DNA of 64,000 nucleotides from an uncultured virus (IMG/VR IMGVR_UViG_3300031993_000054) (taxonomy: Duplodnaviria > Heunggongvirae > Uroviricota > Caudoviricetes). Position 1 is the first letter of the stretch. Every line of letters begins with the position of its first letter. Where the stretch lies: IMG/VR virus record IMGVR_UViG_3300031993_000054; one strand, 5' to 3'. A model generated the notes under the pieces. It saw only the letters and a list, made by a program, of their open reading frames with translations. It was not told the DNA's origin and did not search any database. This document shows, piece after piece, positions 15,717 through 39,579 of this stretch. Made by a program: the position numbers and the translations under genes.

Positions 15717-16487
15717 ATGTCACGCAGGAGAAAAGTTGAGATCAAGAAGGTTGAGGACCGCAGGCCCTATGTCCTTTGGCGCCGTGTCTCTACGGACGGC
15801 CAGGGGGATAGCGGCCTCGGCCTCGATGCTCAGGAGGCCATCGTTCTGGCCAACATGCAGCGGGATTACGTCCAGATGTTCACGGACGTGTACTCCGGCA
15901 CAAAGTTGAAGCAGTGCGTTGGCCTCTGGGAGGCCATCGAACTCTGCAAAAAGAATGATTACCTTCTGGTCATCGCCAGTTATGACCGTTTCCGTAATGT
16001 CCAGGAAGCACTGGAGGTCGTCGATTGTGTGGGAGAAAGGAACATTTTGTTCTGCGACCTTCCGAGTTCAGACCGCTTCGTCCTGACCATCATGTTCGCC
16101 GTTGCTGAAAAGCAGGCCATGATGATTCAACTCAAGACGAAGTTGGCCCTGGCGGAGCGCAAGAAGCAGATCGAGCAGGACGGAGGGTTCTTCTCGAAGT
16201 CCGGAAACTGGTGCACGCACCTTGGCAACAAGAAGGGGGCATCCATGAAGGAAGCCCACCAGGCCGGCCACGCTGCACTGCATCAGATCTCTCAGGACTG
16301 GCGCGAGACGTCTCCACTCTACTCCTGGGTGACAATTCAGGTATTCAAGCGCCGGCCGAGGAAGGATATCCTGGAGGAGGCGCAGGAACTCTACAACCGG
16401 AATCCGGATAAGTATTGTACGAGACAGGGAAAGCCGCTCAGTAAGGGCGTCCTGTCCGTGTGGGTAAATGAACTTCAAAAACAATAG
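15717..16487 (+). CDS. serine recombinase (resolvase/invertase family)
   Basis: WRRVSTDGQ catalytic motif, DVYSG, LVIASYDRFRN. Confidence 0.85.
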   Translation: MSRRRKVEIKKVEDRRPYVLWRRVSTDGQGDSGLGLDAQEAIVLANMQRDYVQMFTDVYSGTKLKQCVGLWEAIELCKKNDYLLVIASYDRFRNVQEALEVVDCVGERNILFCDLPSSDRFVLTIMFAVAEKQAMMIQLKTKLALAERKKQIEQDGGFFSKSGNWCTHLGNKKGASMKEAHQAGHAALHQISQDWRETSPLYSWVTIQVFKRRPRKDILEEAQELYNRNPDKYCTRQGKPLSKGVLSVWVNELQKQ

Positions 16488-16493
16488 CACAAC

Positions 16494-17021
16494 ATGAAAA
16501 AAGTTACACTCGAAATCCCTGACGGGAAAACACTGAAATTCAAGGATGGCGCCTACGTACTGGTCGATGACAACGTGATGGAGCGCATCAAAACCTGGGA
16601 GGACGTCGTGGAGGCCCTGGGGTACGACCCGGCCGATGGAAAGGAGAACCTTCCGGACGACGTGATTGCCTACATCAAGATGCGGGCCATCGTGGAGGTC
16701 CTCAACGAAGGCTGGAAGCCCACGTTCAAGGACGATGAGACCCGGTACTACCCTTACTACTGGCACTACACCAAGTCCGAGTGGGAGAGCCTGAGCGCAT
16801 CCAGGCGGAAGGAACTGGAGCCTACGGTCTGCCTGGTCGGCGGTCGCTCGAATAACGGGTCGGGGTCGGGGCCGCTCTACGTGTACTCGGACGGCGCCTG
16901 GTCGTTCGCGTCCTCGGGCCTCGGCGCCCGCCTTGCATTTAAAACAGGGGAACTCGCCCGCTACGCCGGGAAGCAGTTCTTCGACATCTTCAAGAAATTC
17001 TACTACGATGGAGTGCTTTGA
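16494..17021 (+). CDS. DGR target protein 2 (remote target)
   Basis: Contains VR2; VCLVGG...GARLAF motif of CLec-type DGR targets. Confidence 0.9.
   Translation: MKKVTLEIPDGKTLKFKDGAYVLVDDNVMERIKTWEDVVEALGYDPADGKENLPDDVIAYIKMRAIVEVLNEGWKPTFKDDETRYYPYYWHYTKSEWESLSASRRKELEPTVCLVGGRSNNGSGSGPLYVYSDGAWSFASSGLGARLAFKTGELARYAGKQFFDIFKKFYYDGVL
16827..16937 (+). repeat. DGR variable region VR2
   Basis: 111 nt vs TR: 17 mismatches, all at TR adenines. Confidence 0.95.
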
Positions 17022-18238: not shown

Positions 18239-18503
18239 AGGCTGGGCAGCACGAGACAAAAACGGAGCGCTTTACTTCCACAAGGACAAGCCGCACCGGG
18301 CGTATGGCTGTGTGTGGCACGCCGACTGGAAGTTGCATCCGGATCCAGAAATCTTCCATCTGAGGCTCCCTAAGCAGATGGACCTCCCGGAGTTGAAATG
18401 GGAGGACGAGCCGATAGAAGTTGAACTCATAATCAGGAAGCATGAAGAAACTACTATACATAGATTTGTTTTGTGGTGCCGGAGGCACATCTACCGGCGT
18501 TGA
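18228..18503 (+). CDS. hypothetical protein
   Basis: WAARDKNGALYF...LKWEDEPIEVEL. Confidence 0.55.
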   Translation: MGLRGWAARDKNGALYFHKDKPHRAYGCVWHADWKLHPDPEIFHLRLPKQMDLPELKWEDEPIEVELIIRKHEETTIHRFVLWCRRHIYRR

Positions 18504-20103
18504 ATCTGCAACGATTAACGGTCAGAAGTGTGCCCATGTTATTGCCTGCGTAAATCATGATCCGCACGCAATAGCATCCCACCTTGCAAATCATCCAGAG
18601 GCGAAGCATTACACCGAGGATATCCGAACTCTTGATCTATCAACGCTCATTGAGCATACGGCGAAAAAACGATCCGAGAATCCTGGATCTCTTTTGGTAT
18701 TATGGGCGTCTTTGGAATGTACGAATTTCAGTAGAGCAAAGGGAGGGCAGCCAAGAGACGCAGACAGCAGGACCCTTGCTGAGCATCTTTTCCGGTATAT
18801 TGATGCTCTCAATCCGGAGTATATCCAAATTGAGAACGTCCGCGAATTTATGATGTGGGGAGACCTTGACGAGAACGGGAGACCTATCAGCAAAGACGCA
18901 GGCCGATTATATCTTCAATGGGTTAACAACGTCTGCAAGCGAGGATATGACTTCCAGTACAGAATCCTCAATTCGGCGGACTATGGAGCATACACATCCC
19001 GTGAGAGATTCTTTGGGATTTTTGCAAGAAAGGGTCTCCCAATCGTATTCCCGGAGCCAACACACAGCAAAACCGCAGGCAATGACTTGTTCGGCGGAGT
19101 TGATTCATGGAAACCGGTCCGCGATGTGCTGGACCTCGAAGATTGCGGCAATAGCATCTTTCGCGAAAAACCTCTTTCAGAAAAGACACTCCAGCGCATT
19201 TATGCCGGTCTGGTAAAGTTTGTTGCCGGTGGAAAAGAGGCGTTTCTTGTGCGATATAACAGCGCAAGACCCCAGGACACCATAAGGACGCTTGACAAGC
19301 CATGTGGCGTGCTGACAACGGCCAATAGATTTGCTCTAACTAAAGTTCAATTCCTCTCAAAACAGTTTTCTGGAGATCCTGGAGGAAAGAACATTCCTCT
19401 TGATAGTGTCGCCGGCACAATCACATGCAGAGATCACCACGCATTTATCACCGCCTACTACGGTAACGGCGGCAATACGCCAATCGACAAACCAGCTCCT
19501 ACTGTCACCACGAAGGACAGGCTCGCCTTTGTCAAGACGCAGTTCATAGACCAGCAGTACGGAACGGGCCGTCCGGCCTCCATCAACCGACCTGCTGGCA
19601 CAGTCACTACCAACCCGAAACTGAACCTGATTTCCGTCAAGCCCTGGATCATGGACACGAGTTTCGACAACGTGGGGAGTTCCATTGACGAGCCGTCCCG
19701 CGTCATCACCGCGAACCGCAAGTGGCACTATCTGGTGAATCCGCAGTTCGCCTCCGCCGGCGCATCCATCGAGAAGCCATGCTTTACGCTCATAGCCAGA
19801 ATGGATAAGCGTCCTCCGTATATTGTAACTGCCGAGACCGGTCCGGCCATTGCGGTGTATGATGATGATAGCCCAATGACTATCAAGATAAAAGAGTTCA
19901 TGGCCCTGTATGGAATCAGCGACATTTGTATGCGTATGCTAAAAATCCCGGAGTTGAAAAGGATAATGGGATTCCCTGACACATACGTTCTGGTCGGAAC
20001 GCAGACAGAGCAGAAGAAATATATCGGAAACGCCGTGGAGACACACGTGGCTTGTGCTCTTTGCGCGTCCCTTGCCAATGAAATTAACAGAATCGCATCT
20101 TAA
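18442..20103 (+). CDS. DNA (cytosine-5) methyltransferase
   Basis: DLFCGAGG (motif I), WASLECTNFS (IV), IENV (VI), RERFF (VIII), IGNAV (X). Confidence 0.92.
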   Translation: MKKLLYIDLFCGAGGTSTGVESATINGQKCAHVIACVNHDPHAIASHLANHPEAKHYTEDIRTLDLSTLIEHTAKKRSENPGSLLVLWASLECTNFSRAKGGQPRDADSRTLAEHLFRYIDALNPEYIQIENVREFMMWGDLDENGRPISKDAGRLYLQWVNNVCKRGYDFQYRILNSADYGAYTSRERFFGIFARKGLPIVFPEPTHSKTAGNDLFGGVDSWKPVRDVLDLEDCGNSIFREKPLSEKTLQRIYAGLVKFVAGGKEAFLVRYNSARPQDTIRTLDKPCGVLTTANRFALTKVQFLSKQFSGDPGGKNIPLDSVAGTITCRDHHAFITAYYGNGGNTPIDKPAPTVTTKDRLAFVKTQFIDQQYGTGRPASINRPAGTVTTNPKLNLISVKPWIMDTSFDNVGSSIDEPSRVITANRKWHYLVNPQFASAGASIEKPCFTLIARMDKRPPYIVTAETGPAIAVYDDDSPMTIKIKEFMALYGISDICMRMLKIPELKRIMGFPDTYVLVGTQTEQKKYIGNAVETHVACALCASLANEINRIAS

Positions 20104-34825: not shown

Positions 34826-35182
34826 TTATTCCTCCACTTCTTCGATCGGATCGGTGACGGTGTGAGCAATCTGCTTGGCCTTCACCCGCCACGCCTTGAA
34901 GGCTTCCAGATCTGCCTCGTGCTCAGGCGTATCGGCGCCATTGGCCAGGATGGCCTCTACGGCGTCAGCGGAGAACCGGTCGCGGACGATGGCGGACACC
35001 ACACGGCCATAGTCGATGGCACCTACGATGTCCACGTTCTCGCACACCAACTGCTCGACGGTCTCACCGTCGATGGTCTTGGTGATGTGCTCATAGTCGA
35101 AGTAGATGCGGGTGATGGTGCCCTCTTTTACCACAACGACGCCAGCGGGGACTTCCCCGTTGTAATCAGCATAAACTTTCAT
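34826..35182 (-). CDS. hypothetical protein downstream of DGR RT
   Basis: 118-aa ORF, ATGA overlap. Confidence 0.65.
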   Translation of the reverse strand: MKVYADYNGEVPAGVVVVKEGTITRIYFDYEHITKTIDGETVEQLVCENVDIVGAIDYGRVVSAIVRDRFSADAVEAILANGADTPEHEADLEAFKAWRVKAKQIAHTVTDPIEEVEE

Positions 35183-35787
35183 AAGTCTATAAATTTGTAA
35201 GTGAATTTTCCTCTTCCGAGATCTACGCGGGTGATGCCGATGCCGTCAACCGGAAAGACGGTCTTTCCGCTTTCCTCGGCCTTCCGGCACTCGTCCAGGA
35301 TGTTCTTCATCTGGAACGAACTGACAGTGAACTTAATCTTCTCACCGTCCTCCTTCTGGACCATGACCATGTAGCGGTCGTAGTTCATCTTGGACGGATT
35401 GTGGATATCCGGCGTCGGTATGTTGGACTCAAAATCAAGGATAGTGAGGCGCTGATTCAGCACCTCCATGATGGTCCCCTTGCGGCACTCGAAGAACTTC
35501 TTACCGTCCTTCGTGCTGGCCTGCTCGATAGATATTCCCTTGTCGGCGAATCCCATAGGTTTTCCTGTTATCGTTTCCCAGAGATGGCTGCATCGTCCGT
35601 ACATGCACCAGCCCTTGTAACTGTCAATAATTTGTTTTCTTCTTTTTCGGCTTTTGACGCGGGCCATGCTCCTTGCGAATTTTTGCTTTATCGACTTTCG
35701 GAGTTTCTGATTGTCCCTGCTGAACTGATACCCCAGAAAGTCGAGGCTTCGGCCCCCTCTGCCTCCTTCTTCTTTTCTTTTTGCCAT
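35179..35787 (-). CDS. DGR reverse transcriptase segment 3 (LDFLGY and thumb) fused in frame to a ~125-aa accessory domain
   Basis: SLDFLGYQF...LRKSIK...SYKGW...LW, then MGFADKGI (ATG 35556) with no stop between. Confidence 0.8.
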   Translation of the reverse strand: MAKRKEEGGRGGRSLDFLGYQFSRDNQKLRKSIKQKFARSMARVKSRKRRKQIIDSYKGWCMYGRCSHLWETITGKPMGFADKGISIEQASTKDGKKFFECRKGTIMEVLNQRLTILDFESNIPTPDIHNPSKMNYDRYMVMVQKEDGEKIKFTVSSFQMKNILDECRKAEESGKTVFPVDGIGITRVDLGRGKFTYKFIDL

Positions 35788-36043
35788 AGCCCTTAATCGC
35801 GCCGTAGTATGCGTTGGCCTTCACTACCATTCCCCGCTCTTCGGCCAGGCGATTGTACACGTTGAGAAGGAATCTTACCTCCTGCCTTGACCGGCCGAAA
35901 ATCACCAGGTCGTCGCAGTTCCGTTCGATCTTTGCCCCGTACTTTTCTGTGAGGATGTGGTCTATCTCTAAATGGCCGAGGTTCCCAATCATCCCGCTGA
36001 TGTACGAGCCAATTCGTACCCCTCTTCTTCTTTTCGCACTCAT
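35624..36043 (-). CDS. DGR reverse transcriptase segment 2 (palm)
   Basis: GVRIGSYISG (GxPIG-like) and RNCDD (YxDD equivalent). Confidence 0.85.
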   Translation of the reverse strand: MSAKRRRGVRIGSYISGMIGNLGHLEIDHILTEKYGAKIERNCDDLVIFGRSRQEVRFLLNVYNRLAEERGMVVKANAYYGAIKGYGKKKRRRRQRGPKPRLSGVSVQQGQSETPKVDKAKIRKEHGPRQKPKKKKTNY

Positions 36044-36620
36044 TGGCCACCATCTCGATTATTTCGTCCCCACAGTCGTAGTCCAGCACGCATATCTCAA
36101 TAAGCCGTATAAATTTCTCGTCCTTGAACCAGTGTCGGAACACCTTTACCAAGTAATCAGAATCCAGATTCTGATAGTATTTCTTGCAGTCGGACTGGGC
36201 CGCGTAGTGGTGGTCTGGATACCGCCGCATGATCCGCTTCACCCTCCTTACACCGTACAGGCATCCTCTTCCTCGGATGCAACTGGACGTGTCTGCAATC
36301 ATCTTTTTGTTGATGTAGGGTTCGATGATCTGCATGATTGCGTGGGCGATTATCTTCCACGGGTCATACGTCTCATCTTCCAAATCCCGGATTTTGTCCC
36401 GGTCCGCTCGGCGCTGCATCTTCCGGCTCTTGTGCTCAGGAAAATCCAGATTCAGAATCTGGTACTTTATCCTTTTCACCGTCCCCTTCACGTCAGCGTT
36501 CACGGCCCGAATCTGGGCGGATCTCTTGGCCTTCCCACCGCGCTGGGAGCGCTTGATGGCTAACTCCAAGTTATCCTCGTCGGCTACCTTCTCCAGGATG
36601 TGCCCTATCTTTTTCGTCAT
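35793..36620 (-). CDS. DGR reverse transcriptase segment 1 (fingers)
   Basis: NLELA, KIRDL, HAIMQIIEP, SCIRGRG, SDCKKYY, KDEKFIRL. Confidence 0.88.
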   Translation of the reverse strand: MTKKIGHILEKVADEDNLELAIKRSQRGGKAKRSAQIRAVNADVKGTVKRIKYQILNLDFPEHKSRKMQRRADRDKIRDLEDETYDPWKIIAHAIMQIIEPYINKKMIADTSSCIRGRGCLYGVRRVKRIMRRYPDHHYAAQSDCKKYYQNLDSDYLVKVFRHWFKDEKFIRLIEICVLDYDCGDEIIEMVANECEKKKRGTNWLVHQRDDWEPRPFRDRPHPHRKVRGKDRTELRRPGDFRPVKAGGKIPSQRVQSPGRRAGNGSEGQRILRRD

Positions 36621-36621
36621 A

Positions 36622-36652
36622 CAAATATACGCATTTTTTTATTCCCTGCAAT
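36622..36652 (-). promoter_or_regulatory. Bacteroidota-type promoter abutting RT start
   Basis: ATTG-N19-TATATTTG, 1 nt before ATG. Confidence 0.5.
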
Positions 36653-36903
36653 AGTGATACCGCCCGGGACGTTCGAGAGTGGCCATCGGGGAGGAACTTC
36701 AACGCTCACAATGCGCTTACTTACGCCCTCCAACACGCTCGGCCAAACCTACATTAGCCCCGCTCGCAAGCCCATACCTCCGGGCTGCTCTCCCGCATAC
36801 GAGATGTTCTGACTCGCCGGCGCGACCTGCCGCCGGGGTCAAGGCTGAGGGGGTTCGCCGGCCGGTGTCTATCCGGCAAGGCGATGAACAGGGTATTTCA
36901 CTT

Positions 36904-37014
36904 TGTATGGCGGGCGCCGATGTTCGAGTTCGCGTTCGACCAGGCGTTGTTCGAGTTCACGTAGAGCGGCCCCGACTTCGACCCGTTATTCGAGTTACCG
37001 CCGACCAGGCAGAC
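36904..37014 (-). repeat. DGR template repeat (TR)
   Basis: Intergenic, AAC-rich (25 A in 111 nt); matches VR1 and VR2 at every non-A position. Confidence 0.97.
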
Positions 37015-37149
37015 CGAGAGAACTGGAACCACCGAGCGTACTATACCCCCTCCTACCTACCACCATATCGGGCGCGGTTGCAGCCGCTTTGGGGCGACTG
37101 CCCCGCGCTTCCGAGGTGGATTTTTATTGGTAAAGGTATTTCAAAGAAC

Positions 37150-38457
37150 TTAACTGATGTCCTTCCCGTCCACAATTGTCACAGGACCAAAATATGCAGG
37201 GCGGGCGCCGAAGCCCGAGTTCGCGAGCGACCAGGCGTCGCTCGAGTTCACGCAGAGCGGCCCCGACTGCGACCCGTAACCCGAGTTACCGCCGACCAGG
37301 CAGACCTGTCCTGTGGCGTTGCCATAGAAGTAGTCGCACCAGCGCTGGTTGGAGTTTCCGGTGAGGGCAGTGGCGATGACATCGAAGAACTCGCCCTTGG
37401 TCATAACGCCAGCGTAGCCACTCGTGGTGAGGCGGGTGAGTTGGCGGAAGTGACCGTCCGGGTGGGAGGCCAGTTCACCGGCGGAGGGCAGGCGGTTTCC
37501 GTCGTAGATGAAGACTTCCGTGCCGTCCTGACCGGAGTTGCCGCTGTTGCCGAAGTAGATGCCCTGGACGAACTCCCACTGGAGGTTCCAGAGGTCTTCC
37601 AGGCCGCAGACGGAGACGTGCGTGGAGTCGGTCTGTGCGCCGGTGATGGCGACAGTGCCCGTGGCGTCACCGAGGCTCTTGGTCTTACCGGTCTTCTTGA
37701 GTTCGCCGGTGATATTGCCCCAGTCGTAACCGGCAGAACCGCCGACACCCTGGCCGATGGAAGCCTGGGCGTTCGCATTGCCGTTGGCCTCGGCCAAACA
37801 GAGCATGGAGATCCAGCGAACGTGGTCGTAGTCCTTGAGGCCCCAGTTGGAACCGAAGGTCTGGGCAGCGTTCCAGTATTGGGTGATGGTCTTGGACGAG
37901 GTGTCGAAGTCAACGCCGGAACGGGACACCAGTTTGCTGCTGGTGATGGAACCCTTGTAGGCGCCCAGAACGATGCGGTTGCCGTTGTCGGCGTTACCGA
38001 TGTAGTGGGCGGAGATGGGGAACTCGGAGCACCAGAGGTAAGGGATGCTGGTCTCCGCGTCGGTCTGCACCAGGTAGTACAGACGAGGAGCGATAACCAC
38101 GATGGAACCCTTGGTCTCGTCCAGGGTCGTGCCGTCGGCATAGATGCCGGAGTTGTTCGGGTGCAACTTCGCGGCGCGGCCGTTCGGGTCCATCAGGTAA
38201 CGGCCGATCTTGGCCTTGTAGGATTGCCAGGCTGCGATGTTTCCAACGAGGCCCCACGCAGGCGACGTCTGGGTAGCATCCTTGAGAGGGACACCCCACG
38301 CCACCTGGTGAAGCAACTCGGCCTGGCCTTCATTCATTGCAGTCTCGAAGTCCTCCATCGAGATACGGCGGATGGCGCCGTTGATCTCGACCAGGAGGCA
38401 ATTCGATTTCAGCATGGAAGTTACTGCTGTCGCATTTGCTAAAGGTTTGTTTGCCAT
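37150..38457 (-). CDS. DGR target protein 1, probable receptor-binding tail protein (CLec-type fold)
   Basis: GLEDLWNLQWEF...VCLVGG...GARPAY; VR1 near C-terminus; tail module. Confidence 0.88.
   Translation of the reverse strand: MANKPLANATAVTSMLKSNCLLVEINGAIRRISMEDFETAMNEGQAELLHQVAWGVPLKDATQTSPAWGLVGNIAAWQSYKAKIGRYLMDPNGRAAKLHPNNSGIYADGTTLDETKGSIVVIAPRLYYLVQTDAETSIPYLWCSEFPISAHYIGNADNGNRIVLGAYKGSITSSKLVSRSGVDFDTSSKTITQYWNAAQTFGSNWGLKDYDHVRWISMLCLAEANGNANAQASIGQGVGGSAGYDWGNITGELKKTGKTKSLGDATGTVAITGAQTDSTHVSVCGLEDLWNLQWEFVQGIYFGNSGNSGQDGTEVFIYDGNRLPSAGELASHPDGHFRQLTRLTTSGYAGVMTKGEFFDVIATALTGNSNQRWCDYFYGNATGQVCLVGGNSGYGSQSGPLCVNSSDAWSLANSGFGARPAYFGPVTIVDGKDIS
37195..37305 (-). repeat. DGR variable region VR1
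   Basis: 111 nt vs TR: 14 mismatches, all at TR adenines. Confidence 0.97.
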
Positions 38458-38475
38458 AAGGTATTGTATTAGGGA

Positions 38476-39579
38476 TTACATAGTCCATTCGACCTCAGAG
38501 ACCACAACCACGTCCTTCTCAACGCCGTTGACGTCAGTTTCCGCCGTGGTGATAGAGACGAGGTTGGTGGCGCCGGTGTTCTGGCCGGAAGCAGGGACCC
38601 TCTTGCGGGACACCCAGCCATCAGGGTCCATGACGTTCGACACCCATTTGGCACCGGTGATGGTGGTCAGTTCGGTGTTGGTACGAACATTCACGACGTA
38701 TGCCTGGAGGTAAACCGGCTTGTTGGCATCCACCTCGCGGTTCGGAGTGCCGGTGGTGGACCCGTCGCTGTTGCAATAGCGGTGCTCCACGTGGTAGTCG
38801 TCCAGAGTGTCGATGATGCGGATGCCGGCGCGGTACACCGGAGCGGCGCCACCTTCATACTCGGACTGGCTCTTGTAGAACTCGGCGATGAACAGTTGCG
38901 TTCCGTCCACGTCTGCCCGGGTAACGGTGATCTGGGTCTGGCCCAACTTCTCGGACCAATGGGTGTCATCCTTGAACCACTTCACGTAGAAACTGTTCTG
39001 CGTGAGGCCGCCCAGGTAGAGAGCGGTCTTGACGGTAGTCTGGGTGACGAGGGCCGTCAACTGCTCGGAGGTGGCATTGATGGTGCCGAAGTAAGAGGAT
39101 GCGCCCACGATCTGAATCTGGATGTCGATGCTCTTGCTCAGGTCGTACTCAACGCCGGCCACAGTGGCCACGCAGGAGTAAGTGAGGGAGTCGGATGCGA
39201 CATTGGTCGTGCTGGCCAGGTCGCCGATGATAGCCAGGGCACCGTTCGTCGCCATAGCAAAGCGGTCGTCCTCGGTGGATTTCGTGTAAACCACGCCGCC
39301 GATGGTGACGGTAGAGCCGGTGAATGTCAGGCTCACGTTGTTGTACTTCCAATGGTGATAGCCGAGCGTCACGGTGTTGCCGCGAGCAGACGTCACCTGA
39401 GGAGTGATGATAGGAGTCACCTTGCCGGTGCCAGTTCCCCATGCGGGAGTGACTACACCAGACTCGGGATCGACGCCCTGGAAGAGCGGAACCCCATTGG
39501 TGCCAAGAGTGATGAAGAAGGTATCACCGTTGCGGAGTCGCTTGACCGTGATACTGTTTTGTGCGCTGTAATTATCCAT
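38476..39579 (-). CDS. putative tail structural protein
   Basis: T/V/S-rich beta protein in tail module. Confidence 0.65.
   Translation of the reverse strand: MDNYSAQNSITVKRLRNGDTFFITLGTNGVPLFQGVDPESGVVTPAWGTGTGKVTPIITPQVTSARGNTVTLGYHHWKYNNVSLTFTGSTVTIGGVVYTKSTEDDRFAMATNGALAIIGDLASTTNVASDSLTYSCVATVAGVEYDLSKSIDIQIQIVGASSYFGTINATSEQLTALVTQTTVKTALYLGGLTQNSFYVKWFKDDTHWSEKLGQTQITVTRADVDGTQLFIAEFYKSQSEYEGGAAPVYRAGIRIIDTLDDYHVEHRYCNSDGSTTGTPNREVDANKPVYLQAYVVNVRTNTELTTITGAKWVSNVMDPDGWVSRKRVPASGQNTGATNLVSITTAETDVNGVEKDVVVVSEVEWTM

Follow-up and report, generated by a model that had tools for sequence, protein, structure and literature searches.

A phage diversity-generating retroelement whose reverse transcriptase is spread over three reading frames and may be a split enzyme

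How is a reverse transcriptase (RT) produced from a gene that changes reading frame twice? The question is raised by the diversity-generating retroelement (DGR) in a stretch of 64,000 nucleotides (nt), here called the window, from an uncultured virus of the Caudoviricetes (IMG/VR record IMGVR_UViG_3300031993_000054). The RT gene occupies positions 36620-35179 of the minus strand, and its coding sequence is distributed over three overlapping open reading frames (ORFs A, B, and C), each in the +1 frame relative to the preceding one. A preliminary description, made from the nucleotide sequence, had placed the RT motifs in three successive +1 frames and had offered two explanations, a pair of programmed frameshifts or the separate initiation of three polypeptides. 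We found the three ORFs at the places described, and the same two explanations are the live ones. Our analysis slightly favors three separately initiated polypeptides, which would together form a split RT.

ORF A (36620-35793, minus strand; 275 amino acids, aa) starts at ATG 36620. Its residues 1-201 (36620-36018) constitute the fingers with motif A, and its last 74 aa form an out-of-frame tail over palm-coding DNA. ORF B (36043-35624, minus strand; 139 aa), in the +1 frame relative to A, starts at ATG 36043 and encodes in order the palm with motifs B-D (RRGVRIG...RNCDD), a basic stretch (KKKRRRRQRG), and a tail overlying C. ORF C (35787-35179, minus strand; 202 aa), in turn +1 from B, starts at ATG 35787 and encodes a 10-residue leader, motif E (GGRSLDFLGY), the thumb, and an extra C-terminal domain of about 120 aa. 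GVRIG and RNCDD are accordingly read in frame B, and LDFLGY in frame C. Junction 1 (36013-36043, minus strand) comprises the start codon of B, ATG(B) (36043-36041), a polypurine stretch, and AGAGGGGTACGAA, with frames A and B both open across it; junction 2 (35747-35787, minus strand) likewise comprises ATG(C) (35787-35785), a polypurine stretch, and CAGAGGGGGCCGAAG. The coordinates first reported for the junction codons, the two internal ATGs, and a 12-mer repeated ahead of each junction (36024-36035 and 35766-35777) were all correct.

Judged by homology, the three pieces make up one complete DGR RT plus the extra C-terminal domain. Pfam RVT_1 gave weak matches to ORFs A and B, and the PHROG RT family phrog_1423 matched residues 1-201 of A and residues 12-166 of C, indicating that the homology ends at the junctions. 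We built profiles of the individual pieces, each from 28-30 lineages, and searched them against solved structures. The best match was in every case 8ub7_A, at residues 3-170 for piece A (profile A5, E = 1e-14), residues 177-248 for piece B (profile A6, E = 3e-8), and residues 254-319 for piece C (profile A7, E = 3e-4); the three matches are collinear and non-overlapping. Searches of the PDB with single sequences of A, B, and C returned no match, and the profiles alone did so. The structure search labels 8ub7 only as 'Reverse transcriptase'; we take it to be the DGR RT of Bordetella phage BPP-1 (bRT). BPP-1 resembles the window element both in providing the best solved, collinear match for all pieces and in its adenine-specific mutagenesis between template repeat (TR) and variable repeat (VR). 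bRT is, however, a single 328-aa ORF that works with Avd, whereas the window has three ORFs and the additional domain of about 120 aa.

The possibility of assembly indels was addressed with a 2090-nt contig from an independent cattle-gut run (X4, with a different study code), which reproduces window positions 35100-36893 with 0 differences and 0 gaps. The identity of this independent contig indicates that the three-frame RT is not an assembly artefact. Three loci at about 80% protein identity (L002, L003, and L004) share the three-ORF arrangement and the positions of its ATGs, and the 1460 aligned bases among close relatives contain a single indel, which is 3 nt long and in frame. The ratio of nonsynonymous to synonymous substitution rates (dN/dS) was 0.06-0.09 for piece A, 0.08-0.13 for piece B, and 0.14-0.18 for piece C, each in its own frame; each piece is under purifying selection in that frame. 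No such selection was detected on the out-of-frame tails in their own frames: the A tail gave a dN/dS of 1.7-2.6 in frame A, and the B tail gave approximately 0.6 in frame B, compared with 0.2-0.3 for the same bases read in frame C.

A blastn search in 'distant' mode against phage records returned no match. Scans of metagenome and viral contigs yielded 118 further loci, and 56 distinct junction haplotypes were defined as those in which both junction anchors could be placed. The +1,+1 layout occurs in 50 of the 56, an unsplit RT in two (L012/13 and L125), the second break alone in one (L126), and aberrant frames in three (L072, L035/47, and L101/102). At 90% nt identity, the split haplotypes fall into 32 clusters; contigs of human-gut prophages are among their members, and protein identity falls to approximately 34-42%. 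Eight loci without an unambiguous junction-1 anchor (L051, L060, L097-L099, and L120-L122) were left outside the junction counts; seven show a net +2 shift between A and C, and L051 is unsplit. We took the aberrant haplotypes for errors or damage, not for naturally 'repaired' forms. L072 has an A8 run just before ATG(C), where the other haplotypes have A6, L035 and L047 share a 1-nt deletion inside B, and L101 and L102 carry an 11-nt difference.

The DGR element also looks recently active, as the preliminary description had supposed. Along the minus strand, the target gene (38457-37150), whose 3' end carries VR1, is followed by the TR, a 283-nt spacer, and the RT. The TR (36904-37015, minus strand) has 112 positions. 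VR1 (37195-37306, minus strand) forms the C-terminus of the target gene product (37150-38457; 435 aa, tail protein phrog_5302), and VR2 (approximately 16826-16937, plus strand) lies inside ORF 16494-17021 (175 aa, phrog_11581). The claim that both VRs depart from the TR at adenines was borne out: VR1 shows 14 differences, 14/14 at TR adenines, and VR2 has changes at 20 of 30 TR adenines, its core changes being all at adenines and its seven non-adenine mismatches all falling outside the core, in the flanks of the 126 nt that were scanned. The VR1 of the X4 contigs (assembled contigs, not raw reads) differs from that of the window at 16 positions, 16/16 of them TR adenines, although only 25 of the 112 TR positions are adenines. 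Since the RT in X4 is identical to that of the window while VR1 has changed at adenines, the target has diversified while the three-frame RT stayed the same.

These data bear on a third explanation, in which the RT is a pseudogene in decay or an artefact of assembly and the VR differences are old. Loss of the RT by internal deletion in five relatives (L005, L006, L010, L011, and L014) and extra frame breaks in a few low-coverage contigs are what decay would produce. The independent contig is nevertheless identical, the same frames recur across the 32 clusters, dN/dS stays at 0.06-0.18 over the pieces with one in-frame indel in the alignment, and VR1 varies between samples at adenine sites only. 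We consider this explanation very improbable, and the initial judgment that the breaks do not represent random decay is upheld by the same selection and layout data. Conversely, we regard it as practically certain that the three-ORF layout is real, that it extends across the clade, and that it is under selection and apparently active.

The layout had been thought undescribed, which was wrong: it has already been published, and the window adds a ruminant representative with 54% GC. The Quimbyvirus passages of Benler et al. 2021 describe an RT in three overlapping frames, suggest two programmed frameshifts, and report two VRs with adenine-specific variation; those passages name no shift site (PMC8008677). 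Within the literature searched, this paper is the only one to treat the three-frame layout. The RT or the second VR comes up in the RT-related passages of the LoVEphage paper (PMC8525569) and of a 2025 study of gut prophages that can be induced (PMC12629997), and the word 'frameshift' is never used there.

On sequence grounds, the window RT is a phage DGR RT of the Quimbyvirus/LoVEphage type, with one TR and two VRs, from a cattle-gut relative. The two share an RT in three overlapping ORFs that cover all three frames, the gene order tail protein, TR, RT, and the placement of one VR in a tail-module gene by the RT and of the other at a remote site on the opposite strand, close to a methyltransferase. 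The annotated Bacteroides phages LoVEphage, BI-TP1, and PV4-TP1 share 43.6% identity with piece C, the GenBank entry of BI-TP1 annotates the RT as three coding sequences, and the breaks occur at the same two sites as in LoVEphage/Quimbyvirus, aligning at G-x-P/R-I-G and G-R-x-I-D-F-L-G-Y. The window differs from the LoVEphage type in its cattle-gut origin, its 54% GC, a protein identity of approximately 42-46%, and its palm (NCDD and S-G instead of YCDD and S-Q). Its frame B continues 38 codons beyond motif E, whereas that of the LoVEphage type stops one codon before it. Compared with the human-gut members, frames A and B of the window run far beyond the junctions, and the junction codons of the window happen to look alike.

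Two programmed +1 ribosomal frameshifts would join A, B, and C into an RT of about 480 aa and might keep the RT level low. This is what the 2021 paper suggests, in its Quimbyvirus passages, for that phage (PMC8008677), and a contiguous RT requires no new assembly mechanism. Each shift is +1 and is located in a purine-rich stretch, and the variable position of the frame-A stop fits a model in which that frame is irrelevant. In the window, the two junctions look alike, and the zero-frame sequences AAG-AGG-G and CAG-AGG-G resemble hungry-AGG sites of the Ty1 kind. prfB, Ty1, and antizyme are known programmed +1 frameshifting systems, which likewise change frame by +1 within an essential coding sequence. 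In contrast to these systems, we found neither a shift codon, a stop or hungry codon, nor a stimulator that is conserved in the clade of the window.

The preliminary description had read an AGAGGGG..CGAA motif shared by the two junctions, together with the 12-mer, as a signal. Each exact motif has two matches in the window, found only at the two junctions, where 0.03-0.04 would be expected, and none of 100 shuffles reached two. Among the relatives, AGAGGGGNNCGAA and the 12-mer were each present in 1 of 132 related loci, which counts against a shift signal. Both breaks and purifying selection on each segment are conserved in the relatives; the AGAGGGG..CGAA motif is not. From the codons used, motif and 12-mer are best read as this genome's way of encoding a basic K/Q-R-G stretch, for which relatives use other Arg codons. 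The Shine-Dalgarno (SD)-like AGAGGGG was also considered as a prfB-type stimulator or ribosome-binding site and rejected, because the motif is unconserved and the host appears SD-poor. After the junctions, alignment columns 631-720 and 931-990 are nearly invariant when the window is compared with L002 and L003; these stretches were rejected as frameshift stimulators or as dual coding, since the conservation is lost once L016 and L056-58, or other clades, are added. We found no downstream stimulator conserved at the nucleotide level across clades, a further point against frameshifting.

The codon patterns at junction 2 indicate that both frames are read across it. All 28 aligned lineages have R-x-R-x-R in the basic stretch of frame B; its Arg codons are exchanged synonymously (AGA/CGC/CGA/CGT/CGG), whereas frame C changes over the same bases. 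The frame-C motif G-R-x-I-D-F-L-G-Y shows little or no variation: its Gly, Arg, and Ile codons vary synonymously, and unsplit relatives carry the identical motif. The invariant frame-B Arg and frame-C Gly codons lie one base apart in the window, L053, L054, L016, and L060; in other lineages, the interval between the invariant stretches is 0-5 codons with variable sequence. No slippery, hungry, or stop codon common to the lineages was found at junction 2. The zero-frame codon over the frame-C Gly is NGG with all four N, the next codon is ordinary, and the Arg codon preceding NGG may be AGG, CGG, CGC, AGA, or others. This variability argues against a defined shift site, as does the one-base-wide interval left for a shift in several lineages, including P-site codons unable to re-pair (CGC-G in L060). 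The frame-B stop precedes motif E in 21 of the 32 clusters, and a shift at that stop (xAT-TGA) was excluded by the synonymous variation of the upstream G, R, and I codons of frame C. At junction 1, 5-8 purine-rich codons separate the last invariant Glu of frame A from the Arg-Gly of frame B, and no conserved slip motif was found there.

The best-conserved feature of the junctions, across the sequences compared, is instead the ATGs of the downstream frames, which the preliminary description had noticed just upstream of each break. ATG(C) is present in 32/32 clusters. The frame-B codon over it is NAT, where N may be A, T, C, or G (Asn, Tyr, His, or Asp), followed by a G-initial codon, and the frame-B amino acid at this place varies while A-T-G is constant. 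Based on the NAY codon usage of each lineage, the product of the frequencies of T versus C is 10^-9.4, an approximate figure calculated on the assumption of lineage independence. ATG(B) is present in 29/32 clusters, the exceptions being L114 and L128 (TTG nearby) and L016 (distant GTG only). A downstream-frame stop is found 1-10 codons ahead of the internal ATG in many of the lineages. A double frameshift leaves this conservation of ATG(C) and ATG(B) unexplained, and we judge it, on the whole, an unlikely though serious alternative.

Under the slightly favored explanation of a split RT, each ORF would be translated alone from its own start (ATG 36620, ATG 36043, and ATG 35787), and the three polypeptides would assemble non-covalently into one enzyme. 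The purine-rich junction inserts would have two functions, giving the upstream piece its basic C-terminal stretch and providing the internal start with a weakly structured setting, which would matter in hosts that make little use of SD sites. In 41-nt segments compared across lineages, the median minimum free energy (MFE) was -2.0 kcal/mol at ATG(A), -2.9 kcal/mol at ATG(B), and -2.5 kcal/mol at ATG(C), against -6.1 kcal/mol for the gene background. Most genes of the window, and both internal ATGs, are without clear SD sites, a scarcity that would fit a Bacteroidota-like host.

Several points weigh against separate initiation. The window's own ATG(C), with an MFE of -6.2 kcal/mol (rank 0.42), does not lie in a weakly structured setting, and MFE cannot discriminate between the explanations, because purine tracts are unstructured whatever their role. 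The SD-poor genes of the window make the ribosome-binding context equally uninformative. The tail of piece A ranges from 7 to 93 residues (74 here), is unconserved, and bears no sign of selection for an early stop. ATG(B) is absent in 3/32 clusters, and its conservation may be partly a by-product of frame A, as it overlaps the conserved (N/D)-E of that frame; the figure for ATG(C) is approximate in that it takes the lineages as independent. Furthermore, we know of no naturally split RT. A complex prediction for A+B+C gave no verdict, its score being non-specific, and counts neither way.

An intermediate arrangement would have C self-initiated at ATG(C) and A and B joined by a +1 shift at junction 1, or both routes operating in parallel. 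Separate initiation is best supported at junction 2, where ATG(C) is universal among the clusters and invariant residues of the two frames abut, and this junction can exist alone, as in L126. Junction 1 offers a wider interval of 5-8 purine-rich codons, and three clusters have no ATG(B) there. Even so, junction 1 shows no conserved slip motif either, and ATG(B) is still found in 29/32 clusters, often 1-2 codons past a frame-B stop. We hold this arrangement to be rather improbable.

The unsplit and two-piece relatives suggest an order of events. Hankyphage (Bacteroides phage p00), L012, L013, and L125 belong to the same RT subfamily as the window, including the C-terminal domain (36.8% and 42% identity to window piece C for p00 and L012, respectively), but have a single RT ORF (421-437 aa in L012 and L125) without purine-rich inserts at the two sites. 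L126 (1621-3022) has a 312-aa ORF with fingers and palm, followed by a separate 185-aa ORF C in the +1 frame with its own ATG. The junction of L126 carries the same purine-rich insert, and its relative L125 (1709-3022) is one 437-aa ORF without it. The two-piece form of L126 beside the one-ORF form of L125 suggests that the second break arose before the first. We give roughly even chances to the more specific proposal that the window encodes a natural tripartite, adenine-mutagenic DGR RT, divided into fingers, palm, and thumb, which would have evolved stepwise from an unsplit form through two pieces (as in L126) to three.

The window extends the three-frame RT layout to ruminant phages. In the passages on this phage in one human-gut virome survey (PMC12629997), LoVEphage/Quimbyvirus is the most common inducible temperate phage. 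If A, B, and C are separate proteins, they would constitute a natural split RT, which would help in understanding how DGR activity is controlled and could serve as a template for engineered split retroelements. If they are instead joined by double +1 recoding, this would be a rare bacterial case without a recognizable shift site.

The remaining parts of the element were also characterized. The TR-RT spacer (36621-36903, minus strand) is highly conserved and predicted to be structured. Its mean column identity is 93% (window, L002, L003, L010, L016, and L056-58), far above that of the RT coding DNA, and in 21 of the 59 pairs of its consensus fold both sides have changed. The spacer is probably the structured part of the DGR RNA. 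RNA-library contigs (X16 and X17) span 36537-37015, from the TR through the spacer to base 84 of the RT; the junctions lie outside. An Rfam scan of 35000-38600 gave no match. The X4 contigs and the nearest virus record (G001) break at or beside the TR and VR1 (36893-36963 and 37306), which is the usual outcome of a repeat and VR heterogeneity in assembly; G001 ends within the target gene and is without an RT.

The RT and target gene are set in the tail and lysis module of the phage, with genes for a tape measure, tail proteins, and an amidase. The VR2 ORF sits between a serine recombinase/invertase gene (15717-16487) and a DNA methyltransferase gene (18442-20103), on the strand opposite the RT. 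Such a remote second VR close to counter-defence genes agrees with the Quimbyvirus description. We noticed no avd-like ORF between target and RT, although no search aimed at accessory genes was made. The last ~120 aa of piece C (KDGKKFF... domain; 35179-35540, minus strand) are common to unsplit relatives and have no counterpart in solved bRT. As no avd-like gene was noticed, this domain may fill an accessory role.

The palm of the window's clade reads R-N-C-D-D and G-V-R-I-G-S-Y-I-S-G (35900-36010, minus strand), where most relatives have R-Y-C-D-D and G-V-P-I-G-x-x-x-S-Q. These variant motifs seem compatible with activity, because the VR still varies adenine-specifically. In the RT-deleted relatives, the first 34-40 aa of A are fused to the last 144-164 aa of C. 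At five positions, all adenines (columns 68-86 of alignment A8), the TR of these relatives departs from that of the window, as though it had acquired VR-type sequence. Downstream of the RT, a 118-aa ORF without a family match (34826-35182, minus strand) begins at an ATGA overlap with the stop codon of ORF C, and its position is kept in L002, L003, L010, and L126.

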